64,000 nt of DNA from Folioceros fuciformis. Taxonomy: Eukaryota. How positions within the stretch are numbered: the first letter of the stretch is position 1; each line of letters opens with the position of its first letter. The notes below the pieces were generated by a model that ran no database searches, had not been told where the DNA came from, and saw nothing but the letters and a program-made list of their open reading frames with translations. Both the position numbers and the translations under genes were made by a program. Location: contig JBNGIO010006379.1 in NCBI GenBank assembly GCA_049999805.1, positions 189,614 to 253,613 on the forward strand, read 5' to 3'. Positions 24,092 through 63,327 of this stretch are shown here, one piece after another.

Positions 24092-25876
24092 CTAGTTCAC
24101 ACCCAGACCACTCATCTGGCTTTCCAAGACGCCGTCTTCTGTATTGTCCTCCGACTCATCTGCATCTATACCTTCAGCATCCTCATCATTCTCTGCTTCC
24201 TCTTCCTCATTCTCGTCCAAGGAGCCAAGCACTGACACTCCCGAGACGCCCTTTGCCAGCTCGTCACGCAGAGCCTCTATACCTGCCTCTGAAATTTGAT
24301 TGCCATCCAAGTTCAGGGACTTGAAATGTTGCTTGTTAGCAACAGCTTGCGCCGCTGCAACCGCTCCGGCCCTTTGAAGAGAGTTCGTGCTGAGATCTAG
24401 CTCCTTGAAATTCTCACTGCCATTGAGCAGGGCCTTGCAGATGATCACTGCTCCCTTATCCTTCAGTTCGTTCTCTGCAAGGTTCAGTCTAATAAGGTGT
24501 CTCTTACTTGAAATACAACTGGCCAGAGAGTTTGCTGACTTGTGCGTGATCTCATTACTGCTGAGTTCCAAGACAGCGAGATTGGGGGCCGTGGAGGCCA
24601 GAGCTTCAGTGATGGCAATGACACCCTCGTCTTCCAAAGCCAGTTCACTTAGGTACGCCTCTCGCAACTCCGCATGAGACCTCAAGGTCTTGGACAGAGC
24701 AAGACCACCTTCCGGACCGAACATGTTATCTCTCAAGTCCAGCTTCAGGAGACTCCTGCCGGACTGTAGAGCTTCGACCAACGCTATCCCACCCTCGATG
24801 CTCAACCTGGTGGAAGAAAATTTGAAGTCTTCGAGGCGGGATGCACCACTCACAAGCTCGGCAAGAATCAAGCCCCCTTCATCACCAGTCATGTTATTGT
24901 GGAAATGGACCTTCCTCAGCTTCTCGTACACCGGGATGAGCTCGCAAATAGCCCTGGCAGCGTGCTCTGAGATTCCATTGTTCATGAAATAAATCTCCTG
25001 CAGAGCCTTCTGCGACTTGAGAAGAGAACCAAAAGCCCGAACCCCTTTCTCCCCCAAAGCATTGTCCGAGACGTTGAGTGACCTAAGCTCACTCCCTACC
25101 AGAGCATCGGAAAACATACCCATGACTGCCAACGCATCGGCTTCCGACTGCCCTGCCACAATATCAGCCAGATTGACATCCACCAGCTGGCCCTTTATGG
25201 CTCCTAGAACTTTAGCAGCTACCTCTCCCGCTGCCCTGTCGAAGCTGAGATTGCTGAAACATATGCTGGAATACCTATTTCCAGGCTCCGTCAAAGGTTT
25301 CAGCACCTCCAGTGCCTGATCTCCTTTCACAAAAGCCCTCTTTCCCCCAGACCCTGCCGCATTGAAAAAGGTAGGGCCCCCTCCACCACTGACCTCCTCC
25401 GCAAATCCGACTCGCCGCACGACAGCCTTTGCCTGCACCTGCGCCTGCCCATTAGACAGAAACTCCGTCTCCGTGCCCCTGTCCACCTGCACAACCACGC
25501 CATTACACTGACCTTCCAATCCGCCCACACCACCAGACTTGGCCACCTCGCCATCCTTCCCCACCACAGGCTTCGACTTGACGGCCTCCAGCATGAGCGA
25601 GCTGGCCCGCTTCGCGTACAGCTGCACGACCGCCGTATCGCTGCTCCCAATCTGCGCAGCTGCTTCTTGCTCCGCGAACGCAAATGCCTCGTTCTCTATC
25701 CTCTTGGCGTGCTCCAGGGCCTCGTCCGGGCTCAGCGCCACATACCTGTCAGTGCCCAGGGAAAATGTGCACAGATTGGTCGACATTCGCTCCACCAAAT
25801 TTGACCGAGTGCTCTCGCTCGGAGGCCAAAGCTTGAAAGCGTGCTCGTGCCCCGCCGCATCCCTTCCCGCCGCCAT
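24092..25876 (-). CDS. RanGAP: Plant Ran GTPase-activating protein (WPP domain + LRRs + acidic tail), intronless CDS
   Basis: FKLWPPSESTR WPP motif, LRRs such as LNVSDNALGEKGVRAFGSLLKSQ and LDLRDNMFG, acidic C-terminus. First ATG at 25876. Confidence 0.95.
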   Translation of the reverse strand: MAAGRDAAGHEHAFKLWPPSESTRSNLVERMSTNLCTFSLGTDRYVALSPDEALEHAKRIENEAFAFAEQEAAAQIGSSDTAVVQLYAKRASSLMLEAVKSKPVVGKDGEVAKSGGVGGLEGQCNGVVVQVDRGTETEFLSNGQAQVQAKAVVRRVGFAEEVSGGGGPTFFNAAGSGGKRAFVKGDQALEVLKPLTEPGNRYSSICFSNLSFDRAAGEVAAKVLGAIKGQLVDVNLADIVAGQSEADALAVMGMFSDALVGSELRSLNVSDNALGEKGVRAFGSLLKSQKALQEIYFMNNGISEHAARAICELIPVYEKLRKVHFHNNMTGDEGGLILAELVSGASRLEDFKFSSTRLSIEGGIALVEALQSGRSLLKLDLRDNMFGPEGGLALSKTLRSHAELREAYLSELALEDEGVIAITEALASTAPNLAVLELSSNEITHKSANSLASCISSKRHLIRLNLAENELKDKGAVIICKALLNGSENFKELDLSTNSLQRAGAVAAAQAVANKQHFKSLNLDGNQISEAGIEALRDELAKGVSGVSVLGSLDENEEEEAENDEDAEGIDADESEDNTEDGVLESQMSGLGVN

Positions 25877-29483: not shown

Positions 29484-30888
29484 CGCTGCGGTGCTGGTCA
29501 CATGAGCTTCATCATGCTATTTCAATCCAGGATGTTTTCAACAAGCCATGAGGTATGTTTGAAGTACCACGGCCCAAGAGTGACCACCGACCGCAGCGAG
29601 TTCATTTACTTGTTAAAGTCGTTCAGGTGGACCTGTGGGTACTTTACCATCGACTTTCATCGGTACACACACGCACATCCCACTTTACTCCAAAAAACTA
29701 GAGAGAACCGCCTCTACTTGAAGCACATCTACCAGCATCCAGGGGGTCCTCCTTCCGAAGCCCTAGAACTAAGTCGCATACCAGTCCCAGAAAGCGAATG
29801 CGTTACAGGCAGTTCAAATTTCAATGCTTGCAAGTCAGACAGCAGCCCAACGCGCTCTCGTTAAGGTTTGTGCGACCCTCAGGATCTACACGATAGATCA
29901 CCACCTTGTGTTCCTCCCATACTTCAGTCCCCGTAAAAGTGACTCAGCACGGATGCAGGCCCGAACGACGGCCCAAACCGTGGCCACTACTGCTCCTCTT
30001 CCTGTGCTACCCGGCATTCAGAGGGTCTGATCATTTCTTCTGTCCTTTGGCGTTGCCGCAGCCCGTGATACTTCCCCGTTGTAGCTGAGATTCCCCGTGC
30101 CCAGGGGCCCGAACTTCTCAACCACCTGCCTGCAGCATCCTGCATAGGACGTAGCTGTCGCTCTCGGGACTTATGATCAGGCTTTGGCTGTACGCTTCCT
30201 CCATCCACCCACACCGGAAGTATGTCGTTGCACTCATTGATGGCATTCAGGCCGAGAGAGTTGATACTTCGCTAGAACTGACCTTGACATCCGCATACAT
30301 CAACAATCCCTTCATGGCAGCATGCCCCATCCTTGACTTCTGATTTCCGTATCCACTGGCAGATTCAGACTGTGCCTGCAAGGACTTCAGGTTAGAATCG
30401 TTTCCGACATACCCTGCCTTCCTCCCAGCTAGAGTAGTGTCCCGGGAGAGGGAATAGGCACCAGCTTGGTGCCACCTAGGTGCCAATTCTAAGTCACATC
30501 TGGATCCGATTTTCCTCAGGTGACCTAGATGATGACGATCCGACCCGCCTCTGGCCCCTATATGGCTTTGCCAACCGGCTTGGGTCGACTCCTCCCTATC
30601 TGGTTATCGAGATCTTGCAAGAAGACATGGGTTTCCACCTTCACCAAGGCTGTCACTTTGTCCGTGAGCAGTTCCTGGGCCACGTGTCTCATGGTGAATT
30701 TTACTACTAAGTGACGCGGCAAAACCTGTCCTTCAGGGACAGATTTGATGCTCACGTCCCCGACAAGAGCCCATGACCACTTCGTTGGACAGCGCCACGC
30801 CAAAAGCATGGCTCTCTTGGATGCCTGAGTGTGAAGGTAGCCACTTTCGCATCACACGGAAAACTAGGCTCATCAACCACTTTTCTCG

Positions 30889-33849
30889 TCAGGGTCGACC
30901 CTTACAGCTGCAACAACCATTAGCAAATCGATGCACACGGTACCCATCCCTTACAACAATGTTCCTCTGCTCCAGCCTTGACATGATCTCTGTAGAACTG
31001 TGGCAGTCACTGCACATGCGTAGATTCTTCGTTACCACCAAAGGTGTCCCACTTGGAGTGTTCAAGAGACCAAACGCCAGAGCTAGCTTCTCAGCATGCC
31101 CACAAAGCGTTTCTTCCTTTTCCTTCTCAGACAGTGGCTTCAAAACCAACTTTGTGTGAGGTACGTGGCCCCCTTCTTGTTTCAGATGTGCATTCATGCT
31201 CTCAACCTTTGGCGCGATATCATCTCTTCTTTCCCCCACCGAAAATGTGTGCACCTGCTTCTTCACCTCAATAGTCGCCACTGCAGGTTTCTTGTTAGCT
31301 CCTGCAACCAATCTCTGTGTTTCGATCCTGTCTACATCGCTCCACATCCCTGCATCTGCATAGGCATTGGCCATGAGAACATACGCAGACGACGCCCTTT
31401 CCGGGTCCAGCCTAACAATCCTTTTGAAACACCACATCGCCTTCTCTATATCCCCGTGGCTTTTACAGGCATTCAACAAAGCCGTCAAGCCCACGACATT
31501 ACGTTGATCCTCACATGATAAGAGCATCTTCTCTGCCTCATCTAAGTGGCCTGCACGCCCAAGAAGATCAATCATGCAGTTGTAATGCTCAATAGTAGGT
31601 TTCATGCCATGCTGTTCAGCCATGGAATCAAAATGCTTGCGCCCCTCGTGAACCAGTCCCTCATGACTACACGCTACTAAAAGGCAAGTAAAAGTTGCAT
31701 CATCAGGCTGAACACCGGCAGCTAACATCTCTTCAAAGCAAGCTAGGGCTCTGCGGGCATCGTCACAAGTGCCATACCCAGATATCAGGGCATTCCATGT
31801 CACCACACTCCTTGTGTTCATGCTGTCAAAAACTTGCCGCGCACCTTTCAAATCACCACATTTTGCATACATGTCCACCATACAGGTGCCGAGCACTACA
31901 TTATCCTGCAATCCTCTTTTGACAATCTGTGAGTGCAGCTCCCTTCCCATCTGTAAGGCACCAGTGCTTGCACAAGCCTTGAGGAGGCAAGCAAAAGTAA
32001 AATGGTCAGCCAGTATCATCCCGTCTTCCTCAATTTGTCCATACAAAACAAGCGCTTCCTGGCCTAGCCCTTGCTGTGCATACCCAGATATCAGAGCATT
32101 CCATGTCGCCACATCCTTTGTGGCCATGCTGTCAACAACCTGACGTGCCGCTTCCAGTTCACCACATTTTGCATACATGTCTACCAGGCAGGTGCCCACC
32201 ACGACATCCTTCGACAGTCCTCTTTCAACAATCTGTGAGTGCAGCTGCCTGCCCTTCTGTAAGGCACGAGCACTTGCACACGCCTTCAGAAGGCCAGCAA
32301 AAGTAATACGATTACCCAGAATCATACCCTCTTCCTCCATTTTTTCATACACAAGAAGCGCCTCATCTCCAAGTCCTTGCTGTGCATACCCAGTTATCAG
32401 AGCATTCCATGTCACCAAATCCTTTGAGCCCAAGCTTTCAAAAACTCGTCGTGCAGCTTCCAGTTCACCACATTTTGCATACATGTCCACCAGACAGTTG
32501 CCCACAACTACGCTGTGCAGCAGTCCTCTTTTTACAATCTGTGAGTGCAGCTGCCTGCCCTTTTGTAAGGCACCAGTGCTGGCGCACGCCTTCAGAAGAC
32601 AAGAAAAAGTAAAATGGTCGGCCGAATGGACGCCGTCTTGCTCCATTTGTTCGTACAAAACAAGCGCCTCCTGGTCCAGCCCTTGCTGTGCATACCCAGA
32701 TATCAGGGCATTCCACATCACCACGTCCTTTCTGGCCACGCTGTCAAAAACCTGGCGTGCTTCTTTCAGTTCACCACATTTTGCATACATATCCACCAGG
32801 CAGGTGCCAAGAAACAAGTCAGGAGGGACGCCACTGTGCAATATATCACAGTGCACCTGCCTGCCAGATTCCAAGTCGACAGCCAGTGCACAAGCTTTAA
32901 GGGCAGCTCCCAACACGTGAGCATCCACCTTCACTCTTGATCTTCGCATCTCATGGTACAGTTGTACAGCTTCTTTAGCTTTCCCATGCTTCGTGTATGC
33001 GGAGATTATGGAAGACCACATGAAGGCATCTGGCCTACCCACCCTGTTAAGCACATCCATGGCCTCCTCTAACCTACCTCCACAAGCATACATCCGCAAG
33101 ATGTGATTTCCCAGGTATGCATTCGACTCGTACCCAAGTTTGACAGTGAGATCATGAACTCGTCGACCCAGGACCAAATCCTTCTTAGCTGTACACAGTT
33201 TGAGCACAGTGTAAAACAGAGACTGAGAAACAACAAAGCCAGTCTGCGCCAACGATTCCAGGGCTCCGACGGCCTCAGAAAGCTTCCCCTGCTCACATAA
33301 CATGTTCACAGTTCTGGCCGTCACGATGCCGATCCTGGATCCTTCACGCCCCACATGTTGAGGATTATCCGAAGAGCTTGACTTGGAAGGAGAGGCACCA
33401 TGACCCATCTGCAGGTCCAAGGAATTGAGTTTCTCATCAGCCCAATCGGGCTTACACAAGTTGTTTAACCACAGGACCTCGCCGGATTTCTGTCGCCGAA
33501 AGGCAGGTGAGTGGGAACTCTTCTTGTCTTGTCTGCTGTCCCACCGCATGGCAGGGTCGGGTACATATTGTTGCCACAAGTGCTCCTGATCCTGGCGATG
33601 ACCATCTTCGGAAAGCCCGTCTCCACCAACACATTCCATCGGAAGTGGAAGGGCTGGGCTCCTTACACTGCTGCACCGGGAAGCTTTGTTCGCTAAGAAT
33701 TGACTTCCTAAGATGCGGTGAGCGGGAGCTCCTTGAAGAATCCCTGTACAAACGCCAGTTTGTTGGGTCGAAAACAGGTCTGATTGCCATAGTGTGCCCA
33801 TCGTTCGGCACCGCTGTGGGAAGATGGCCTTAACAAGAGCCTGTACCAC
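30889..33849 (-). CDS. PLS-class PPR protein with E1-E2 and a DYW:KP (GRP-ending) deaminase-like domain; putative U-to-C organellar RNA editing factor
   Basis: Single 986-codon frame (first ATG 33801) with about 17-18 P/L/S motifs, then P2-L2-S2-E1-E2, KKPAVATIEV, HAEKLA, NLRMCSDCH and HRFANGCCSCKGRP*. Confidence 0.95.
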   Translation of the reverse strand: MVQALVKAIFPQRCRTMGTLWQSDLFSTQQTGVCTGILQGAPAHRILGSQFLANKASRCSSVRSPALPLPMECVGGDGLSEDGHRQDQEHLWQQYVPDPAMRWDSRQDKKSSHSPAFRRQKSGEVLWLNNLCKPDWADEKLNSLDLQMGHGASPSKSSSSDNPQHVGREGSRIGIVTARTVNMLCEQGKLSEAVGALESLAQTGFVVSQSLFYTVLKLCTAKKDLVLGRRVHDLTVKLGYESNAYLGNHILRMYACGGRLEEAMDVLNRVGRPDAFMWSSIISAYTKHGKAKEAVQLYHEMRRSRVKVDAHVLGAALKACALAVDLESGRQVHCDILHSGVPPDLFLGTCLVDMYAKCGELKEARQVFDSVARKDVVMWNALISGYAQQGLDQEALVLYEQMEQDGVHSADHFTFSCLLKACASTGALQKGRQLHSQIVKRGLLHSVVVGNCLVDMYAKCGELEAARRVFESLGSKDLVTWNALITGYAQQGLGDEALLVYEKMEEEGMILGNRITFAGLLKACASARALQKGRQLHSQIVERGLSKDVVVGTCLVDMYAKCGELEAARQVVDSMATKDVATWNALISGYAQQGLGQEALVLYGQIEEDGMILADHFTFACLLKACASTGALQMGRELHSQIVKRGLQDNVVLGTCMVDMYAKCGDLKGARQVFDSMNTRSVVTWNALISGYGTCDDARRALACFEEMLAAGVQPDDATFTCLLVACSHEGLVHEGRKHFDSMAEQHGMKPTIEHYNCMIDLLGRAGHLDEAEKMLLSCEDQRNVVGLTALLNACKSHGDIEKAMWCFKRIVRLDPERASSAYVLMANAYADAGMWSDVDRIETQRLVAGANKKPAVATIEVKKQVHTFSVGERRDDIAPKVESMNAHLKQEGGHVPHTKLVLKPLSEKEKEETLCGHAEKLALAFGLLNTPSGTPLVVTKNLRMCSDCHSSTEIMSRLEQRNIVVRDGYRVHRFANGCCSCKGRP

Positions 33850-34797: not shown

Positions 34798-35377
34798 CAA
34801 AAAGGAAGGTACTCAAATGGGCTTAAGTGATCCGATTCACATCAAAAGGAAGGTACTCCAATACGCTTAAGTGATATGATTCATGTCAAAAGAAAGGCAC
34901 TCCAAAGGGCCTTAGTGATGGGTTCTCATTCTCCAATGGGCTTAAGTGATCTAATTCATGTCAAAAGGAAGGTACTCCAAAGGGCCTTAGTGATCGGTTC
35001 TCATTCTCCAATGGGCTTAAGTGATCTAATTCATGTCAAAAGGAAGGTACTCCACAGGGCCTTAGTAATGGGTTCTCATTCTCCAATGGGCTTAAGTGAT
35101 CTAATTCATGTCAAAAAGAAGGTACTCCACAGGGCCTTAGTGATGGGTTCAAAAGGAAGGTACTCCAGAGGCCTTAGTGATGGGTTCAAAAGGAGGGTAC
35201 TCCAGAGGGCCTTAGTGATGGGTTCAAAAGGAAGGTACTCCAGAGGGCCTTAGTGATGGGTTCAAAAGGAGGGTACTCCCGAGGGCCTTAGTGATGGGTT
35301 CAAAAGGAGGGTACTCCAGAGGGCCTTAGTGATGGGTTCAAAAGGAGGGTACTCCACAGGGCCTTAGTGATGGGTTC
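34798..35377. repeat. Composite minisatellite: 72-bp units grading into 38-bp units
   Basis: tcaaaaggaaggtactcc...gggccttagtgat...ctccaatgggcttaagtgatctaattcatg (72-bp period), then aaaaggaaggtactccagagggccttagtgatgggttc (~38-bp period). Confidence 0.92.
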
Positions 35378-35928: not shown

Positions 35929-36358
35929 CTTTAGTGTCCTTATCTAAGGGTAGATGGTTTTCCATCGTGTTTTTTTTAATAAATAAAACTTAAGTTTTGG
36001 TTTTATAGATCTCCAATCTCGACATTCAAACTTGACTTCTTTAAAAGAGAAATGAAAACAGTATAATTTGTTAACTCTAATGTCAAAGCTTTAAAAGCTA
36101 GGAGCTTGGATGAGGTAAACACCTTAATTTCTTATGAAACTTCCTACACCTTCTGATGAATTGCCCCTGTAGAAGGGGCTCAAAACGTATTGAATATTAT
36201 AGAATAATTGTGTTAATTGGTTTATCTCGTGAAAAGGGTGTTTGCTAAGAGCTTGTGTCAAAAGTACTCCTGTGGGTTTAGTTAGGTAACCTGATTCTAG
36301 TTAGCCAGGGCGAGGCGAGGGCAAGGGCATCGGCACGGCGTGGTCCATCATTTTCCTC

Positions 36359-37800
36359 GCAAGGTCGACCCTTACAGCTGCAACAACCATTAGCAAATCG
36401 ATGCACATGGTACCCATCCCTTACAACAATGGTCCTCTGCTCCAGCCTTGACATGATCTCCGTTGCGCTGTGGCAGTCACTGCACATGCGTAGATTGTTC
36501 GTTACCACCAAAGGTGTCCCACTTGGAGTGTTCAAGAAACTGAACGCCAGAGCTAGCTTCTCAGCATGCCCACGAAGAGTTTCTTCCTTTTCCTTCTCAG
36601 ACACTGGCTTCACAACCAACTCTGTGTGAGGTACGTGGNNNNNNNNNNNNNNNNNNNNNNNNNNNNNNNNNNNNNNNNNNNNNNNNNNNNNNNNNNNNNN
36701 NNNNNNNNNNNNNNNNNNNNNNNNNNNNNNNNNNNNNNCATGTCCACCAGACAGTTGCCCACAACTACCCTGTGCAGCAGTCCTCTTTCCACAATCTGTG
36801 AGTGCAGCTGCCTGCCCTTTTGTAAGGCACCAGCGCTGGCGCACACCTTCAGAAGACAAGAAAAAGTAAAATGGTCAGCCAAAATGACGCCATCTTGCTC
36901 CATTTGTTCATACAAAACAAGCGCCTCCTGGTCCAGCCCTTGCTGTGCGTACCCAGATATCAGGGCATTCCACATCACCACGTCCTTTCTGCCCACCCTG
37001 TCCAAAACCTGGCGTGCTTCTTTCAGTTCACCACATTTGGTTTGCCCACTCTGGTGATCACATCCATGGCCTCCTCTACCCTCCCTCTGCAAGCATACAT
37101 GCGCAAGATATGATTTCCCAGGTATCCATTCGACTCGTACCCAAGTTTGACAGTGAGATCATGAACCCGTCGACCCAGAACGAAATCCTTCTTTGCTGTG
37201 CACAGTTTGAGCACAGTAAAACAGACACTGAGAAACAACAAAGCCTGTCTGCGCCAACGATTCCAGGACTCCGACGGCCTCAGAAAGCTTCCCCTGCTCA
37301 CATAACATGTTCACAGGTTTAGGCGTCACGATCCCGATTTTTGATCCTTCACGCCCCACACGCTGAGGATGATCCAAAGAGCTCAACTTGGAAGGAGAGG
37401 CACCATGATCCATGTGCATGTCCAAGGAATTGAGCTGCCCATCAGCCCAATCGGGCTTCCCCACATTGTTTAACCACAGGACCTTGCCGGATTTCTTGCT
37501 CCGGAAGTGAGCTGAGCGGGAGCTGTTCTCGTCTTGTCCGTTGACGCACCACCCGGCAGGCTCCAGTAAAGATTGTTACCACAAGTGCTCATGCTCCTGT
37601 ATTCGAACGTCGTTGGCAACTCGGTGCCCACCAACACATTTCCTCGGAAGTGGAAACGTTGGGCTCCTTACATTCCTACACCAGGATGCTTTGGTTGGCA
37701 GGGGCTGACTCCCTGAGATGTGGTGAGCGGAAGCTCCATGTAGAATTCCTGTACACAAACCAAATTTGGGTCCGCAGCAGGTCTGGTTGCCATGAGTGTA
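36359..37800 (-). pseudogene. Pseudogenised tandem duplicate of the DYW:KP/GRP PPR gene (spans N gap 36639-36738)
   Basis: Near-identical to 30889-33800, with a premature TAA at 37576-37578, a 2-bp deletion near 37216, a ~250-bp internal deletion near 37035, and the stop after GRP changed to TGC. Confidence 0.85.
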
Positions 37801-39399
37801 ACGAGAGACAGACTGTAACAAGATTCGGAGGTGCCATCCATCGCCACAGCAACCTCAATGACACAAAGATTTAGAGGCCGTGGTACACCACAAGGACTTT
37901 CGAAACAAGGATTTTCAAAACTTCCCACGATCTGGCAGTCGAACTTTCCATGTCACATGGAATGACGTCATACATTGGGTTNNNNNNNNNNGTTCAGGGT
38001 CGGGTTAGGGGTAAATTTACAATGGGTTTAGGGTCGGTTAGACATTTTCAGGAGGTAGACTAGCACTCATCCGGAGGTAGCCTAGTACTCATGGAGAGGT
38101 AGACTAAGTGCTCGTCGGGAGTATTAGACTAGTAGTAGTCGCACTCGAAATTGTTCAGGTCAAACACTTAGTAGTAGTCGCACCGGAAATTGTTCAGGTC
38201 AAAGTTATTTTTTTTAGTAGAAGCAGGGGGTAGAGCAATTTCATAATTATTTAATAAAAGAGATTAATATATTATTAAAATGGATCAAATGAAAATCATT
38301 AGATTTTTTTGTCATGAAGCCATGCATTAAAGTNNNNNNNNNNNNNNNNNNNNNNNNNNNNNNNNNNNNNNNNNNNNNNNNNNNNNNNNNNNNNNNNNNN
38401 NNNNNNNNNNNNNNNNNNNNNNNNNNNNNNNNNAAATTTACTTATTGTATTTAACTAATAATTTTTTTTAAATAGACTCAGTAAGTTTTTTTAATAAATT
38501 TCATGTAAAATAATCCATCCCAACTAAATGGACCGATTATGTACTATAATAGATTACGTCTAAATGTCTATATCTTGTAAGTCATATAGCTTAAATCTAC
38601 TACATCTTCAAATTTGTTTTGTACCTTTAAATTTATGTTAGTTCGACTTCATTGACATTTCAAATATGCTCTATGACTAACTACTATTTGTAATTAAGTT
38701 GTTTGAAATTTGCTGGTGGTTTCAATTCATACATACTTCAAATGCAAGCATGATGAACTACTATTTATAACTTAATTATTTAAAATTTCATATAAGTACG
38801 AATTTATCGTTACTTGAAATGCACTATATGATCAACTATTCGTCTACAATTGCTCACCCTTCATAATTTTTATCGTAATATTTCAAAACTACTAACATCA
38901 AAATCAAGCTCACCATAAACATCTTATTTAAATACTCCATTAAAGTAGCAATGTGAGTGGAAGCGAACATTATTTAGTTCTTTTGAAGCCAAGTTCTTGT
39001 AAATGTGTGTCCTAACAATTGATTGTGCACAAGACTATGGATTTGTGTAAGATATGGTGAAGCAAACATAGAGCAGGTACGACCCCATCTCTACTATGCA
39101 CAAGCCTTCCACACATGGACAAGGAACACGATCAATACATTGCCACCAGCAATTTGTGGCCCACGTTTTAGCACCATGCTTTAGGCTATGACTTCTTCTC
39201 ATCTCCTCACACATATTATCGTTTTGGCACAAAACATCAACAAAAATTTAATTCAATTTATAATGATACACCTAATATGCATAATTCCACAGATACAATA
39301 CAAATTCAAGCCTTACTAAAACACAAAGATACATCGATATTCATCCCTTAATTAAAAAGATCCTAAAAATACTTTAGCTTTCTACTTATCCACAACAAT

Positions 39400-42300
39400 T
39401 GACCAATTTGTCCTAGCTAATTACGAGGAAGACATTACATTCCCAGAAAGAGAAAATTAGAAAATAGCAATTAAATTAGAATTAGATTACTTAAAAGCCA
39501 ATAAAACTTGGACCTTTATTAACTTATAGGATCTAATTGGACATTTTAAATTAAATTGAATGCAAATGACAGCGTAGGAAGGTATAAGACTAGATTAGTG
39601 GCCAAGGGTTACTCACAGCAACATAGATTCGACTATGATAAGATAAATATTAGGCCAGTGCATGAGATCACCTTACTTAGAACTCTTGTAGCACCAGCAT
39701 TTCATCACAACTATGAACTGATGGACTATGAACTCATGCACTTTGACATGAAAACCGCCTTCCTCTATGATGACCTTCAATGTACTATATATCTTATTGC
39801 AACTATGTACTTATGCAACTTGACATAAAAATCGGGTTACCATACCACATATGTGGAGATAGTGTCTTATCACAACTATGAATTTATATAACTTGACATA
39901 AAAACCGCCATCCTCTACAATGACCTCCAACTTACGTCGCATTGCAACTATGCACTTGTGCAACTTGACGTAACTCTAGAGCATCTCATCATAACTATGA
40001 ACTTTTTATTGGTAGAAAATAGGTCGGATTATGACAGCTTGCGCCATTGGAGGGAGTAACAACTATGAACTAATGCAACTTGACATAAAAAAACAAATGC
40101 AACTTGACATAAAAACCGTCACTTGCCATAGATATGGAAATAACGTCTAATCACAACTATGAACTTATGCAACTTGACATAAAAAATAAATGCGACTTGA
40201 CATAAAAACCGTCACTTACTATTAGCATAGATATGGAGATAGCATCTAATTGCAACTATGAATTTATACAACTTGACATAATACCAAAGCATCTCATTAT
40301 AACTATTAACTTATGTAGCTTGGCATAAAACCGCCTTCTTCTACGGTGACTTGCAACGGACCATCCTTTATATTTATATTGACGTACAACGTATTATATT
40401 CATGGAGATAGGACCTGCAACGTACCATATATGTGGAGATAGCATCTAATTATGATTATGATTATGAACGCAACGTACCATATATGTGGAGATAGCATCT
40501 AATTATGATTATGATTATGAACTCATACAACTTAACATAAAAACCGTCTTCCTCTACATTGACATGTATAAAAACCATCTTCCTCTACATTGACATGCAA
40601 CGTACCATAACATCGAGATAGCGTCTGATCACGATTGTGAATGTATGCAACTTGACATGAAAATTGGTTTCCTATACTTGGAGATGGCGATAAATCATGA
40701 CTATAACCTTATGTGACTTGACATGAAAATCGTCTTTCTATACATGGAGATAACATCTTATCACGACTATGAGCTTCAGTGACTCAACATGAAAACCGCC
40801 TTCCCATACATGGGGATAGCGTCCAATCACGACTATGAACTTATGTGACTTGACATGAAACCCATTTTCCTTTACATGGAGAAAGTGTCTAATCACAACT
40901 ATGAGCTTATGTGACTCAACATGAAAACTATGAGCTTATGTGANNNNNNNNNNGTGACTCAACATGAAAACTATGAGCTTATGTGACTCAACATGAAAAC
41001 CACCGGATAGCGTCTAATCACGACTATGAACTTTTGTGACTTGACATGAAACCCATTTTCCTATACATGGAGATAGCGTTTAATCACAATTATCAACTTA
41101 TGTGACTTCACATGAAAACCACCGTCCTCTACATGTCATCGTACCATATATATGGAGATAACGTCTCATTATCATTATGAACTTATGTAGCTTGACATAA
41201 AAATTGTCTTTCTCTTTAATAACCTACAACGTATTATATGTACGGAGATAACATCTCGTTGCCACTATGAACTTATACATCTTGACATAAAAACTGCCTT
41301 CCTCTATAATGACCTCCAACGTACCATATATATTAAGATAGTGTCTCAATACCATTGTGAACTTATACAGTTTTACATAAAAATTACCCTATATATATGG
41401 AGATACTTGAAGAAATAAAGGTTGACAAAAGATTATACTACATTTGCTTATTATTAAAAGCACTTCATGGATTAAAACAAAGTGCTATGGAGTGGTATGT
41501 TAAACTAGATGAAACCCTAGAGACATTAGGATTTACTAAGCTAGAATCTGATAACATCTATATGAATAGATCAAAAGACTACTTCATTCTACTTGTTATA
41601 AATGTAGATAACATAGTACTCATATCCAACTTCAAGCCTATGCTATGAGATACGGGGTCAATGCTTTCAAAACATTTTGCCAGGACCACATCTAGGGAAC
41701 TATCCAATTGCTTAGGAATTCAAATAGTTAGACATAAGTAATCTAGAAGCACATTAATACATTAATCAAAATATATTCATGAGGTTCTAGCTAAGTATAA
41801 TATGTTTGACTCTAAAGTTGTATCTACACAAATGCAGGTTAACCTCAAGCTCACTAAACCGTATGAAAACTCAAGTGAAAGTGCCTAATCCAATGAGTTG
41901 GTAGCCTTATGTATTAAATGGTTTGCATGAAGCCGACCTCCCTTTTTTAGGAGGAGCTCTATCTTAGTTCTTGTATCCTAGCTGACACAACATAACTAAT
42001 AGACCATCAAGTCAATCTTCAAATATCTCAAATCCACATCTAATATTGGACTTTTATATCAATCATCCACTAAGCGAGGTGGGCCTCTCCAACTCCAAGC
42101 ATTTAGTGATGCTAATTGAAAGCCTCTCCAACTCTAAGGATTCATTGATTGCCATCAAGCCTGGTAATTGGAAGGCCATAAGCTTGGTAATTGGAAGGCC
42201 ATAAGCTTGATAATTGGAAGGCCATAAGCTTGGTAACTGAAAGCCCATCAAACCAATCTTCAAATAAGTCAGATCCACATCCAATGTTGGACTTTTATAT

Positions 42301-43230: not shown

Positions 43231-43891
43231 TAAATTCAGTAACAATTGCGTGCCTCCTGCAAGCATGTGCAGGCGACCTTCAGAATGATCTGAGGTTGAA
43301 GAAGGGAACTGAAAAGCTGAAAAAAATGAAACATCAGCTCCCTTGCCGGCAGCAAGCAAAGGCTTGCTTGATTTCCTCAGTCCCGGATCCCAGCTTGTTC
43401 AGGCACGGTCACCAAAATCAGGGCACCCATCGAAATTGCTTGCGAAAACGAGTCTGGATTCCGGAGTTCGGTCACAACGTGGTCACAAATCTGAGATTCA
43501 GAAGGTCTGTTTGAGAACCATACATTTAATCCTGTTACTGATGATAGGAGGCTCGGAATCACACCGGCCAGACGTGTGCCGCACGCAAACAGGGATCTGA
43601 AAACAGAGCCCTGCGACAAGCGATTATAAGTGATCCCTACTCGAGATCGGCGGGTAGACGTTCTATTTTTCTTAAATGGTTTCCGGGGTACAATCTTAAT
43701 TTGCAAAACCGACGCGTCACACATCACGTTCCCGCTCGAAAAATGCAAACTTGGTCCCATGACCTGCACAGACCGGTACGTTCCGAGCAGTTTGACGTGT
43801 GCAAGGCGGCTGGCCGCCAGCCTCAAGGGAGTTCCAAGTCGTGATTTCCAGAAGGTGCGGCCAAGCAGCTGATGAGTGAGGGCAGCGGCAG

Positions 43892-46800
43892 ATGCACCGT
43901 GGGCAGCTTGGTGGAGCTCTGGACATGGACGCTTCAAGGAGTACCGAGGCTGAGGAGAAGATGAGGGAACTGGAGGCTGCAGCTCTGAAGTCCCTTCACT
44001 CCAAGGAGCTCATGGTCTACAATCGTGACGGGACTTGTACCTGCCCCTTCCGTTCCAGCGAGAGGAAGACCCATCTGTACAAGCACCTCGAGTTCTGCTC
44101 CCACGCCGAGAATCTCATGAAGGACAGGGAGACCGGAGACCAGCACAACGCGCTCCTTACCTCCCTGGAGCGGGAGCTGATGCGGCATTTGGAGGATGCT
44201 GCTCCCCGGATTTTCAAGCTCCTGCGGGATGAGCTGAGGCAGCGGGCGGAGATCATGGCCCCCAGGGTGTTGACGGTTGTGCAGCCTGCACCCAAGCGCG
44301 TGCGTCCCGAGCACCGGGTGGTGCATCCCTGGGCAGGGATTGTTCACAATGTCAACACCCTGGAGAGAAACATGCGGAGAATGCTCCCCGAAAACTTGAA
44401 GCTTAGGGACCAATTCGCGCATTTCCAGCCTCAGTGCGTTAAGACGTTCTGGGAGTACGAAGGGGTGCAGGGAGTGTCCGTCCTCGTGTTCGGGCAGGAC
44501 ATGAAGGCGTATGCGAATGGCAGGTCGTTTGAGGAGAGCTTCCAGGCCGTGCAACGGGGCCGGACTGACTGGGAGCGGTGTACGGCGGCCCGCCAGAAGA
44601 TGACGGATCTCTTCGGCTGGATGGCTCAGGAAGACGACTACTACGAGCCTGGGCAGGCGGGGCAGTTTCTCCGGGAGATGCATAAACTCACCACGATGCA
44701 TGACGTAGTGGAGGAGCAGACGAAGGACAGGCAGGGGCTGGTCAAGAAGAGTGAGGTGGCGGAGCTGGTGGACCCTCTGAAGAAGGGGCTGCCTAAGCCG
44801 TCCAGAGCGAAAACTGAGAAATTCAGCCTCGGTAACAAGGGGGTGCAGGCTTGGGAGAAGGCTAAGGTGACGACTCATTTTCAGAAACAGCTGCCGGAGG
44901 AGGAGACTCGACAAGGTGAGTGCATCTCGTCATGTTTGCGACTTGTCGTCTGATGGGTCGATGGCAGGGTGGGCAGTGACGACACGAGGTTGTTTTTTTG
45001 TTTTTGTGGCAGTGCGCTTCGAAACGATCAAGGCTGCGCCGCTGCGGGTCCCGGCCAATCGCGACCTCAAGGTGGTGTACCCGTGGGTGGGACTCATCTA
45101 CAATGCACCGACTCTTGACCCGGATGGCAGGCGGACCAGCCCCGGGCGCGGAGGGGTGAGGGAGCAGTTTGAGGAGTTCGATCCCCAGCAGGTTCAAGTG
45201 TTCTGGGCTGTTGACGGGCCAATGGGGGTCGCGGCTATCACCTTTAAGCCAGGTGCGAAGGGGTATGAGGATTGTCGACTGTTTAACAGAAGTTTTGTTC
45301 GGAAACATCAGGGAAGGCAGAATTGGCTTGAGAACAAGGGGACGTATCGGCAGGGGAGGGACCTTTATGGCTGGATGGCCGGTGAAGAAGACTACAATGA
45401 TGAAGGGAGAGTCGGGGAGTTTTTGCGGAAGAGTTATCATTCGATCACATTGAACCAGCTGGTGGACAAGGAAATGATGTCTGGCGACCTGTTGGAGAAG
45501 CAGCTGCTTGAAATCATCCAGGAACAAATTAGGCAGTTGCCGGAAAGGGCACACACGAACAAGAAAGCGGACCAGGGATTGCAACTGCAAGTACAAGGTT
45601 TGGGGCCTCTCAGCTGGCTTTTTGTCATCGTTTCCATGTTCCCTGCCTCCGTTGCCCACGGTGAAGTGATCTGTCACAGGGAACGAAACACTGAGAGCGG
45701 ATTCTAAACGAGAGACGAGGAAACGGGCTCAGGAATTGGATGCACAATTGGCATCCCTGGTGGCGCGCTATTGGAAAATGAGCACCAATGACACCCAGAA
45801 TGAAGGAGAAAGGAGGCAGCTCGAACTCAAAATACCAGAGGTACCGGTGAAGCTTGCCCTTTTTCTTGTCCTTCAAGCAATGAGGTGAATCTTTACATTT
45901 CTTTCTCTTAGTGCCGACGAGCCGAGGAGGGGAGAGGAACTGTTTCTCCACTAACGTCTCAGGCGTGGTTTGGACAGAATGAGATCCTGCTACAAATGGT
46001 CGCCCAGGAATGGACCCGAGTTCGAGACAGGGTCCGCAAAAAGCACCTAAGTCCGATAGAGAAGTTCGAGGTAACTTACATGACGTTATCACAAACTGCA
46101 GATTCTTGTGGCTTGCGTGCACAAGGTTTCTATAGTGACCTGTGAGGGAATGTTACCACGAGAAATTGCAGAACGAGCTGAAGAGGTACCTGGAGAAGGA
46201 AATTCATGATCAGCAATAGGACCGGATTCCTGCAAAGCAGCAAAAGATGGTGATGGAACGACGATAGTACGTACTGGACCCAGAGACGATAGGAACACAG
46301 AGACGGAATGTTGCAGGCACGGAGCAAGCGACAGTTACTGGGAAAATCTATGAGATGGAGGAGAACGTTCAAGGAACCTGATTGATATCGTTTACCACTT
46401 GGCTGTGTCTCATCGACGTCCCCCGTGGTTGGTCCTCTCCATCGGGGGCGTCGAATGCCACACAGGCCATATCTGTTGACTTCAAATAAATTGTTTGTTT
46501 GTCGTTTGTCCCATCGACTGGAGGTGTCCTTGGATGTGAGTCCCGGTTTCTGCTTCTCGGGCGACGCCCCTGGTCGATGTGCGGTGGAGGTGTCCTTGGA
46601 TGTGAGTCCCGGTTTCTGCTTCTCGGGCGACGCCCCTGGTCGATGTGCGGTGGTTAGATGCAACAGAGGCCCAGGACGAGGACCAGCTCCGTAACCCATT
46701 CCTGGGTGACCATGGATCAGCTCTTTGAATAAGGCCCGCACCCAGAATTTTGAATGTAGAACTGTAGCTGTGCAGAATGAATTCTGAACATCATGTAACC

Positions 46801-57656: not shown

Positions 57657-60202
57657 TACACCTTCACATGGAGGCACCTGCAAGAAATGTATCACCAACT
57701 GCTCAAGTGAGATGCAACGTGCACCTCCGCTGGCACCGTAAAGGTTGATAGGTATACTCCCTTTTCAATGTTTTTGGGACTTACTGATTGCTTTGGTTGC
57801 TAGTTTTGGACTTCTCGCTGGTTGTTTGACCTTTGGATAGCGATGCAGGATTTCATCATTGGAACGCTTCTGTGCAGGTGAGAGTAATTCCTTGCTGTGG
57901 AATTGGGAAGTGTGCCCCACCGTCACATGCTTCCCTGCGCACGTGCAAGGCGTTCATTGCCTTTCGTCCTGAGTATTTAGATGAAGCGTCCGTGAAGCAG
58001 CCAGCCGGTAAGAAAGGTACAGTGAGACACTCGGCCGGTGGAACTGGTTCTTTCCAATTTGAACCGCAGGATCGACCAATACTCAAAGCAACTCCTTTCC
58101 CTGGATTTGAACCGCAGGGTAGCTTTGTACCTGCATGTCGGTTAAGTTGAGTTGAAGGATGGTACGGGTGTTGAACTGTCCATGGAGGAATTGAAGAACG
58201 TGAAGAAGAGGAATGCAGGAACTCAATGCATTGTTTGTCTTCTAAATGTTAACCCTCTTGTCACTTGTGTTGACAATGAAAAGCGATTCCTGCTTTCCAT
58301 ACGTTGTGGTGTTTGGTCCATGCAAACTGTAAACCATTAGCTGTGAATGTAATGTGAACGTAAACTTTGAAGGTGCTATAGTGTCTATGTAGCTTGTTTT
58401 GAACATGGTTTTGAAGTAAGACCGCCGCTGCCAAGGGCATGAATGGTACTGAGATAGCCATGTGTTATATGTTTTGTCCTTCACGCACCCAACGTAGAGG
58501 ACAGGAACATGGTGGGCGTCTGGGATTTACTGATGAACCCTAACCCTATTTTAGTTTTCTGTATATAAATAAGGGTGCCCTCGTTCTTATAGTTCAGAGC
58601 TTAGTTGTGGAGGTCTGCTTGTTAGCGGTTGTGCTCCGATTCCTTTCCGGTCAATCCTTGTGCGTATGCAGTGGAATTGGTCGTCTGCTGCGTCTCATCA
58701 GTAAGGTGATTTCGCGGCTAGCATCATCGCAGACGAAGTGTTGCTTCTGCCTTGGGGGCAGACGGCCTCTTTTGCAGATGGAGTAAGGAGTACGTTTGGC
58801 TGGTAACCTAGCTCCCGTTCGAGAGAAGTAGGGGCGGGAGCTGAAGTCAGCGGGCATGTGGTCTGGGATTTGAAGTGCTGGTGGTAGACTTGTGTCGCTA
58901 GGCGTGCCCCAGATCACGGCGGTTTCGGCTGTCTGGCCTATTTTTATGTTCTGTCACCTGATGTCTGTGTTTACCACAGTCGATGTGTGGTGCGAAAAGT
59001 GAGCTCTGTTGCCATTGATGATAACCAATCAAGCGTAAGTTGCGGTGTCGTCGAGACCTTGCTTTGTAAGGTGAACCTACTCGCTCACCACCGCTTTCTA
59101 TGGCGCATACCTCTTCTGAGGCGTTTCGAGTGAAGTGCTCTGTAGTGATTCATGTTGGGTCCGAGTTAACGGGTAGGGAATGTGATGACGTATTGTCGCC
59201 CCAGTTTGGCTGCTGTCGACAGCGTTGTGGACCCGAAGTATTCGTGCCGCGTGTTTGAAATGCGTGTTTTAGGTCAAAAAGGTGTCTTTGGGAGGTGTGC
59301 CTATTTGAGTGAGCTGTCCGCACCTGACGCAATATCTCGAGGATGATAATCCTAAGGCTAGTTTCTCAAAACATTCGCAGTGGCCGCCTGAGAGTTTTCG
59401 TCCCGCCAGGCTTGAGAACTGATGCGGTAGAACTTCCTTGGATATCTGAGAGTAGCAAATCAAAAGTAGAAGAACGAGGAGACTTCGGTTCATGATCAAC
59501 TTAGGTTTTCTGTCCCAGTCTTGCTTTCATGTTGCCACTTGTCCTGATCGGAGTTTTAGACGCATCGCGCTACAAGCTGCTCCTTCCCAGACTTGTAGGT
59601 CGCGTAGAGCTAGTGAAATCATCGAGCGAGAGTAGGCGGTAAACCAGCCTGTGGTCAGTTTGCGTTTTAAGACTATCCCGGAGGACAAACTCGGTTGCAA
59701 ATTCTGAGCAAACAGGGACAGACTCCGAGGAAATGGGACGACCCTCTTGATGTAAGGATTGAAATGAAGATTGTTCTCCAAACACCAAAAGAATTGCAAG
59801 TAGCAATTCAGCACATCCTGAAGTATCTATTGCACACTTCGAGCGCGAAGACAAACTCACGAAGTTACTCCTCCAAAACCGCACACAATGACTTGGGAAG
59901 CTGACACAATTCACGGACGCTTCTCCTTCTCCTGTAATGCGAGTGATTTCAATCCTCGTTCAGTCGCCAACATAAAGCTCATCATAGAAAACTTGACACC
60001 GACGCGTAAGGCGCTTCAGGCAATCCACACTTGCGAAGCCATGGGGCTCTCGCAAGACGTGAGTAGGGAGGCCGAGTGGGACGCCGAGGCGGAAGGGAGC
60101 GGCAAATGCAGGCGAACATCCACCCTTCCTCCGGGCGTGCGTGAGCTTGAGCCGTCACAGAACCCTGCCACTGCACGGCTGTGACGCTGTGATGCGTGTC
60201 CG

Positions 60203-62363: not shown

Positions 62364-63255
62364 CGAGTTGCTAGTTTGATCTTGCGGGCTCGCTGTTGCT
62401 GTTCCAGTTGCAGTTGTTCCGGAGGAGGACCCTGCAGAGTAGAATGCAGACTTGAGGCTTCGGCCGCCACACCAGAAGAGAGCAAAGAGGAAAGCGCAAT
62501 TTTCAAAATGCCCGACAGGAGCTTTTAACCGACAGAGGAGCAGGCAGGGGGCACAGATATGCTCAGGGAATCAAGTTTGCCGCAGGGAGGCCAGCGGAGG
62601 AAGCAGGGGAGGAAGGCGCCGAAGCTAGGGCCACAGCGACTGCGGGAAGACGTCAAGGCTAACTTGGACCGGCCCAAATATCACGCGGCACAAGGGATGG
62701 ACAGCACGCTGGTCCGTTTTAGGGTTGAGACTTGCGTGATCTTCAGGACAAAGACGCCGTAGCGTGCGGCACAAGGAGGAGGATATTCTAGGAGATGCTC
62801 TCTGGCATCTCCCAATTCTCTGCGCTGTGACTGGCCGCTGGCTGCTAGCCGCTGGCTGCTGCTCCCTGTACCGTGGGATAAAAACAACGTGTCCAAAAGT
62901 TGGTGTCCATCCCCTGGCCGCTGCTTCCTCCAGCCCCCTGAGGCTCTCCACTGGAAGCTGAACAGTGGCCCAACGGACACGGACGGGGCGCCCATTGATT
63001 AGAGGCCTCCTGGCCTCCTGGCAAGGCTGGCCTCGGTCATTGAGGGCCGCTGCTATCAGAGAACCTGAGTAGGCTGCAAGAAAGACAGTAGTCAATACGC
63101 GCGGCCACGTCTGCAACATCGCTTACAGATGAAGACTTCCCTGTTGACGGATGATCCTCAACACTGCGGACCTTTGAACTACTCTATCCAAAGCAGGCAG
63201 ACTCGCAGGTAAAAGATTAAATTGAAGGGTACAGTGCAACTAAGTCGCATGACTG

Positions 63256-63327
63256 AGGAGGCAACCAGGGTTGAACTGGTGACCTATCGGACTGCAGCCG
63301 ATTGCTCTACCACTGAGCTATACCTCC
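63256..63327 (-). tRNA. trnC-GCA: tRNA-Cys (GCA), intronless
   Basis: Cloverleaf: acceptor GGAGGTA/TGCCTCC, D arm GCTC-AGTGGTA-GAGC, anticodon ATCGG-CTGCAGT-CCGAT, T arm ACCAG-TTCAACC-CTGGT, discriminator U. Confidence 0.95.

Follow-up and report, generated by a model that had tools for sequence, protein, structure and literature searches.

Does a long, unbroken gene in the genome of Folioceros fuciformis encode an enzyme that converts U to C in organellar RNA, and can its target be read from its pentatricopeptide repeats (PPRs)? The gene lies on the minus strand of a stretch of 64,000 nucleotides (GenBank assembly GCA_049999805.1, contig JBNGIO010006379.1, positions 189,614 to 253,613), called here the window and numbered from its first letter. 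An earlier sequence-only reading had regarded it as a putative U-to-C editor, had derived a concrete RNA target from its repeats and had taken the regularity of these repeats as a sign of a functional, specific factor. U-to-C editing is so far known to occur only in hornworts, ferns and some lycophytes (PMC11845758), and the activity has been demonstrated with consensus-designed proteins carrying a DYW:KP domain (PMC9478123). The gene, its motif residues and the subtype of its C-terminal domain are given below as observed; organelle targeting, activity, the direction of editing and the target are inferred. The reading preferred here, with a probability of roughly 60%, is that of a working, site-specific U-to-C editor with roughly the cis-element derived below.

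The gene and its DYW:KP domain

The coding sequence (30889..33801, minus strand) is intronless and complete, comprising 970 codons and a stop codon at 30889-30891, and it begins at the first in-frame ATG downstream of an in-frame stop. Its frame, 993 codons from stop to stop, is the longest in the window, against 617 codons for the second longest, which belongs to a RanGAP-like gene; apart from these two, the open reading frames listed for the window do not exceed 471 codons. The product is a PLS-class PPR protein with a C-terminal DYW:KP domain. A Pfam search of the 970 residues returned PPR at E = 3.2e-88, which places the repeat array far beyond chance, and DYW_deaminase at residues 878-968 (E 6.1e-33). 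Re-translation of the key coordinates was consistent with the motif parse described below. Contigs identical to the window were found at both ends of the gene (30300-30951 and 33384-33834, in the DNA run X1 reaching 34297) in two runs under one organism label, dated 2017 and 2025; all four sequence runs compared with the gene consist of contigs, the label "RNA?" on run X3 being a guess.

The first 55 residues (33637..33801, minus strand) resemble a transit peptide in composition, with one acidic residue (D+E), four basic ones (K+R) and eleven serines and threonines. On this composition the protein would carry an organelle presequence and is probably directed to an organelle. Pfam found no family in the N-terminal 157 residues, even with E values up to 10 admitted.

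DYW:KP domains are distinguished from the DYW:PG type by several published features. Lys-Pro replaces Pro-Gly at the start of the domain (PMC11845758), and the zinc signature HxE(x)nCxxC has Ala or Cys instead of Ser after the His (PMC11845758, PMC9478123). The xHP residues are missing, so that the length is 132/133 instead of 136 residues (PMC9478123, PMC11845758), and the C-terminal triplet varies, GRP and DRH being two named hornwort variants (PMC9478123). Lys88 is described as essential for U-to-C editing (PMC11845758). In the protein studied, Pfam and alignments delimit a deaminase-like domain of 133 residues from K838 (30892..31290; this and the following elements on the minus strand), and re-translation placed each diagnostic element within it. 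The KP pair K838-P839, followed by A840, is at 31285-31290, HAE (H902-A903-E904) at 31090-31098, K925 (position 88 counted from K838, i.e. Lys88) at 31027-31029, CSDCH (C930..C933-H934) at 31000-31014 and the terminal GRP at 30892-30900. All of these sequence features are present: the KP start, the zinc signature with HAE, the missing xHP, the GRP end and Lys88. Because the domain is of the DYW:KP type, and specifically of its GRP subtype, the description of the gene as a putative U-to-C editor is a fair one.

The assignment can be judged against a control set of 123 proteins from homology searches, 43 of which have a DYW-type domain. All 28 PG-type domains have HSE and four extra residues and end in [DGN][YF]W. 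The 15 KP-type domains have HAE, HVE or HCE, and 14 of them are without the four residues. A KP start occurs in 11 of the 15 KP types and in none of the 28 PG types; a GRP C-terminus was found in five of the 43 domains, the protein studied being one of the five.

PPR code and the predicted RNA target

The protein was cut by residue number into contiguous units of 31, 35-36 and 35 amino acids. This numeric parse, together with Pfam, gives 16 motifs in the order S-(P-L-S)x4-P2-L2-S2 (residues 228-768; 31498..33120, minus strand). The pairs of fifth and last residues are, from the N- to the C-terminus, S-ND, P-SD, L-GD, S-TD, P-ND, L-SS, S-ND and P-NN for motifs 1-8, and L-AD, S-TD, P-ND, L-AN, S-TS, P2-ND, L2-TT and S2-NN for motifs 9-16. 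All 16 pairs given by the sequence-only reading were thereby reproduced, in identical order. The E1 and E2 motifs follow (residues 769-837; 31291..31497, minus strand; placed by the parse and by a Pfam E motif at residues 782-845, E 1.6e-11). The architecture is that of the PLS class, with tandem P, L and S motifs ending in P2-L2-S2 and then E1/E2 ahead of the deaminase domain. N, S or T at position 5 combined with D or N at the last position occurs in 10 of the 11 P and S motifs and in none of the five L motifs.

Two degenerate motifs precede the canonical 16, which brings the PPR and PPR-like motifs to 18 in all. An L-like motif with the pair Y/N (residues 193-227; 33121..33225, minus strand) lies within the span of 31490-33230 originally assigned to the array, which is therefore wider than the 16 motifs listed for it, and a P-like motif with the pair A/S (residues 158-192; 33226..33330, minus strand) lies just beyond that span; both were recognised by the numeric parse. 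With S2 at -4 they would fall at -20 and -21. Neither they nor the PDF motif described below appeared in the original motif list, and all three may add to RNA binding.

According to the published code, N at position 5 specifies a pyrimidine and S or T a purine, while D at the last position specifies U or G and N specifies C or A; the rule holds in P and S motifs, and the edited base is almost always the fourth nucleotide 3' of the base aligned with S2 (PMC12733224). The same register applies to designer KP proteins, whose L2, S2 and E1 motifs stand at -5, -4 and -3; at -2 they favour a purine, at -1 a pyrimidine, and the specificity of their L2 motif shifts with other residues (PMC9478123). 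The consensus derived from the array is 5'-UGnGUnUYnGUnRUnYnnnU-3' (positions -19 to 0), the final U being the edited base. Its translation from residues to bases agrees with the published code (PMC12733224) and its positions were counted right, so the cis-element can be called correctly derived; the target itself is what the code predicts. The pyrimidines at -12 and -4, read by NN pairs, are more likely to be C than U.

The consensus has 11 informative positions and holds about 18.7 bits. Per 400 kb of organelle-like DNA, both strands counted, chance alone would give 0.5-0.6 exact matches, 14-18 with one mismatch and 170-240 with two; per 1000 U-to-C sites the corresponding numbers are 0.002, 0.06-0.07 and 0.8-0.9, and about 6 for up to three mismatches. 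A null scan of the 64-kb nuclear window gave 41 matches with at most two mismatches, compared with 30 +/- 5.4 in shuffled sequence (3 of 100 shuffles reached 41); none was exact, five had one mismatch, and no meaning is read into them. With so little information and so many chance matches, the consensus therefore discriminates only when it is compared with verified U-to-C sites and at most one mismatch is allowed. It can be said that the target was soundly derived, and that the word "concrete" claimed too much for 18.7 bits and some 170-240 chance matches with two mismatches per 400 kb. The step from code to target is routine, and its value lies wholly in the comparison with an editome. In the literature searched, as far as its text was accessible, no paper pairing a natural KP protein with a site was found; relatives of the gene may already figure in published lists of KP proteins and predicted targets.

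A most likely mechanism can be proposed from these features. The protein, probably directed to an organelle and built from the N- to the C-terminus of a putative presequence, one PDF motif, 18 PPR or PPR-like motifs, E1/E2 and a DYW:KP domain of the GRP subtype, would bind one strand of an organellar transcript by its array, one base per motif. The KP domain would then be positioned at a uridine that follows, four bases in the 3' direction, the one recognised by S2, and the zinc site (HAE...CSDCH) together with Lys88 would convert that U to C. By the data on designer proteins, the purine at -2 and the pyrimidine at -1 would be a weak additional preference.

PDF motif, paralogues and the rest of the window

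Between the presequence and the array lies a degenerate motif of about 50 residues, identified by HMMER and alignment as a PDF motif of the OSB type (residues 66-132 as searched, core at about 76-125; 33406..33606, minus strand). A full HMMER scan with residues 66-132 returned 181 library proteins at E<=1e-3. The 150 matches listed divide into 50 with an SSB-like OB fold, 13 PPR proteins (three of them having a DYW-type domain) and 87 that belong to neither group, this sorting resting on a single-sequence test. In one match, P0268, two copies of the motif come after an SSB domain (E 5.4e-14), which is the architecture of OSB proteins, and the motif is the PDF motif of that family. The PDF motif of AtOSB1 has been reported as sufficient for binding of single-stranded DNA and has a conserved Pro-Asp-Phe signature (PMC6963530). 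In the protein studied the signatures deviate, with P-A-F for P-D-F and RWD for WWD, so that the Pro-Asp-Phe triplet itself is absent; P0022 and P0351 retain P-D-F.

The combination is not confined to this gene. A hidden Markov model built from 18 copies of the motif and run on 120 PPR homologues found an N-terminal PDF motif in 33 of them, PG- and KP-type proteins alike. They include named records from Diphasiastrum, Adiantum and Calypogeia (a lycophyte, a fern and a liverwort), and P0351, P0321 and P0246 are further PLS-type PPR proteins with the motif at the N-terminus. A Protein Atlas search with residues 66-132 gave nothing usable, and a word-based search with the same residues among proteins of similar length gave no match. 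No description of a fusion of PDF motif and PPR protein was found in a search of freely accessible article text, passages of PMC13386178 included. It may be suggested, as a rather doubtful proposal, that in seed-free land plants the motif assists PLS-type editing factors as a module not described before, perhaps anchoring or extending RNA binding upstream of the array; the code alone would then under-predict targets. If this is true, and if a U-to-C site with at most one mismatch is at hand, the gene would be among the first natural pairs of KP factor and site to test, the PDF motif included. The fusion is also a separate small lead, bearing on RNA binding by editing factors.

The gene belongs to a crowded family. 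Among 8000 candidates of the protein search, 3309 scored E<=0.001, and the unitigs of paralogues lying on the repeat array number in the thousands. The closest homologues, P0022, P0038 and P0056, have 57% identity, the same number of motifs and a GRP end; P0321 is a further close database protein with these last two traits. The pairs at P and S motifs which they have in common with the protein studied are few (4, 2 and 1 of 11, in the order of naming), and most of their own pairs are canonical (9, 8 and 10 of 11). Support for the code from orthologues was considered and ruled out, the homologues at 57% being paralogues or proteins with other targets.

About 2.5 kb upstream of the gene lies a broken tandem copy of it (36351..37799, minus strand), recognised from three pieces that match the gene at 30881-31168 (94%), 32482-32781 (95%) and 33038-33795 (84%). 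The frame shifts between the pieces and the Lys88 position holds N instead of K; the copy still has an ND P motif. A gap of 100 N at 36639-36738 inside it may hide further array sequence. The earlier argument from canonical residues to a functional and specific factor is weakened by these observations: 8-10 of 11 pairs are canonical in paralogues and the ND P motif is kept in the broken copy. Because paralogues and a broken neighbour carry them too, canonical code residues are no proof of function; they are a family trait and no sign of a copy being in use. The functionality of the gene would be better argued from the unbroken frame of 970 codons and the intact catalytic residues, with the intact subtype residues and the presequence-like N-terminus as further points in favour. 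The gene itself is an ordinary representative of a very large family and encodes a natural PPR-DYW:KP protein of the GRP type.

Of the other features of the window, a direct tandem repeat with a unit of about 75 bp is the nearest, lying just upstream of the gene region (34831-35253, plus strand) and recognised from a repeated peptide in the list of open reading frames; it contains three identical matches to the consensus pattern, 75 bp apart, at 34937, 35012 and 35087. The RanGAP-like gene (24095-25876, minus strand, 617 codons) is intronless and encodes a WPP domain and leucine-rich repeats; its best named matches are to liverworts, namely Marchantia (55%) and Riccia (61%, with 70% of the query covered), ahead of Ginkgo (53%) and ferns (51%), and none is close. 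Such a pattern agrees with a bryophyte lineage that has few named proteins, and together with the GRP subtype it makes a hornwort the most likely source. Two adjacent, similar long frames of 357 and 278 codons (43880-45707, plus strand) look like a tandem pair of related genes. An AT-rich stretch at 38001-42000 has a fraction of G and C of 0.31-0.34, compared with about 0.5 around it, and N gaps lie at or near it (37982-37991, 38334-38433 and 40944-40953); no RNA gene was found there. No organelle-derived RNA gene was found in the window, the search turning up only a tRNA-Cys(GCA) gene (63255-63327, minus strand) and a SNORD14 C/D-box snoRNA (59335-59453, plus strand, 66.3 bits).

Alternatives and comparison with known systems

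Several points weigh against the interpretation as a site-specific U-to-C editor with the predicted cis-element. As late as 2025 natural KP proteins were described as being of unknown activity (PMC11845758), and KP6, a designer protein of the fern type, works in either direction (PMC11845758, PMC9478123). Lys88 does not discriminate, K standing in that column in 42 of the 43 control domains, PG types included. In the consensus, the T-S pair (-7) is outside the D/N rule and reads only as "purine", and the prediction makes no use of the L motifs and E1/E2, nor of the PDF motif and the two degenerate motifs near the N-terminus. So few code pairs are shared with the closest homologues that no orthologue supports a conserved target, and a decaying copy adjoining the gene indicates that the family turns over. 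The repeat array was bridged by none of the listed contigs, only short paralogue unitigs being found there. The first of these points has another side as well: as natural KP activity was unknown in 2025, an intact natural gene of the GRP type with a readable code is a usable candidate for a pair of factor and site.

The alternative to be taken most seriously is that the protein is a real U-to-C editor whose site is missed by the two-residue code, either because the true target or targets depart from the consensus at no fewer than three of its 11 positions or because several targets are served. Specificity would then lie with the RNA context or with parts of the protein that the prediction passes over (L motifs, E1/E2, PDF motif or the two additional motifs near the N-terminus). 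The low information of the consensus fits this, as do the chance matches per 1000 sites at two or three mismatches, the 41 matches in 64 kb of unrelated nuclear DNA and the PDF and two non-canonical motifs upstream of the array. The variable L2 specificity and the -2/-1 context of designer proteins (PMC9478123) and the dependence of PPR56 on many aspects beyond the code (PMC10482289) point the same way. Nevertheless, canonical pairs stand in 10 of 11 P and S motifs, and a review credits natural editors with great precision in register (PMC12733224); such a failure of the code is a tenable explanation, though one that is doubted here. A more remote idea is that the frame is open yet unused, the gene being a recent, redundant or silent paralogue with no site of its own. 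This would be in keeping with the broken copy 2.5 kb away, with the canonical residues which that copy retains, with a family as huge as the one described, and with the finding that no RNA data set is listed as containing the gene. It is nevertheless unlikely when 970 codons are open, compared with fewer than 260 in the other non-genic frames of the window, when the catalytic and subtype residues are all intact, unlike the neighbour with its N at Lys88 and its frame changes, and when the code is unlike that of every close homologue, so that the gene is no obvious duplicate of another factor.

The direction of the reaction may also be questioned, since single substitutions switch it in designer proteins (PMC11845758), the zinc-site signature is shared with C-to-U enzymes, and both the bidirectional KP6 and the unproven activity of natural KP proteins have been mentioned. 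The protein might then turn C into U, work in either direction, or do no more than bind and stabilise RNA. The GRP-type designers KP2 and KP3, however, acted in E. coli from U to C only (PMC9478123), and the protein studied has HAE, Lys88 and the KP start and is without xHP; an activity other than U-to-C editing is accordingly regarded as quite improbable.

With DYW:PG factors of known structure the protein has in common the PLS-E1-E2-DYW architecture and the HxE...CxxCH zinc site. The sequence matches are to the synthetic PG-type PPR-DYW protein 9kfx (E 2.6e-43), DYW1 (7w86, E 2e-29) and OTP86 (7o4e, E 1.3e-27). In the alignment with 9kfx, E-P-G stands opposite K838-P839-A840, i.e. PA for PG, HAE stands for HSE, and a gap of four residues falls where 9kfx has SHPQ. 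Unlike the DYW:PG factors, which edit C to U, the protein ends in GRP instead of DYW, and its reaction is expected in the opposite direction. With OSB proteins it has in common residues 66-132, homologous to the repeats of about 50 residues behind their OB fold; in contrast to them it has one degenerate copy, at the N-terminus of a PPR protein and without an OB fold.

The nearest functional counterparts are the designers KP2 and KP3, whose sequences represent a consensus of GRP-type domains from hornworts (Ichinose et al. 2022, PMC9478123). In E. coli they edited U to C at 26% and 22%, respectively, with zero C-to-U activity, and the HAA and AxxA mutants of GRP-based designers were dead (PMC9478123). 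The protein studied has the same C-terminal module, P2-L2-S2-E1-E2-DYW:KP, with the KP start, HAE, CxxC and the GRP end, and the base predicted to be edited lies, as in KP2 and KP3, four nucleotides 3' of the base aligned with S2. In contrast to these proteins of three designed PLS triplets, it is a natural protein with 16 canonical and two degenerate motifs, a presequence and a PDF motif. It has the same subtype features as the GRP variant among natural DYW:KP proteins of hornworts (Gerke et al. 2020 and Gutmann et al. 2020, as cited in later papers). From its closest GRP-ending natural relatives, P0022, P0038 and P0056, it is separated by an identity of at most 57% and by a differing code; it would therefore have a specificity different from theirs, and none of them can be regarded as an orthologue.

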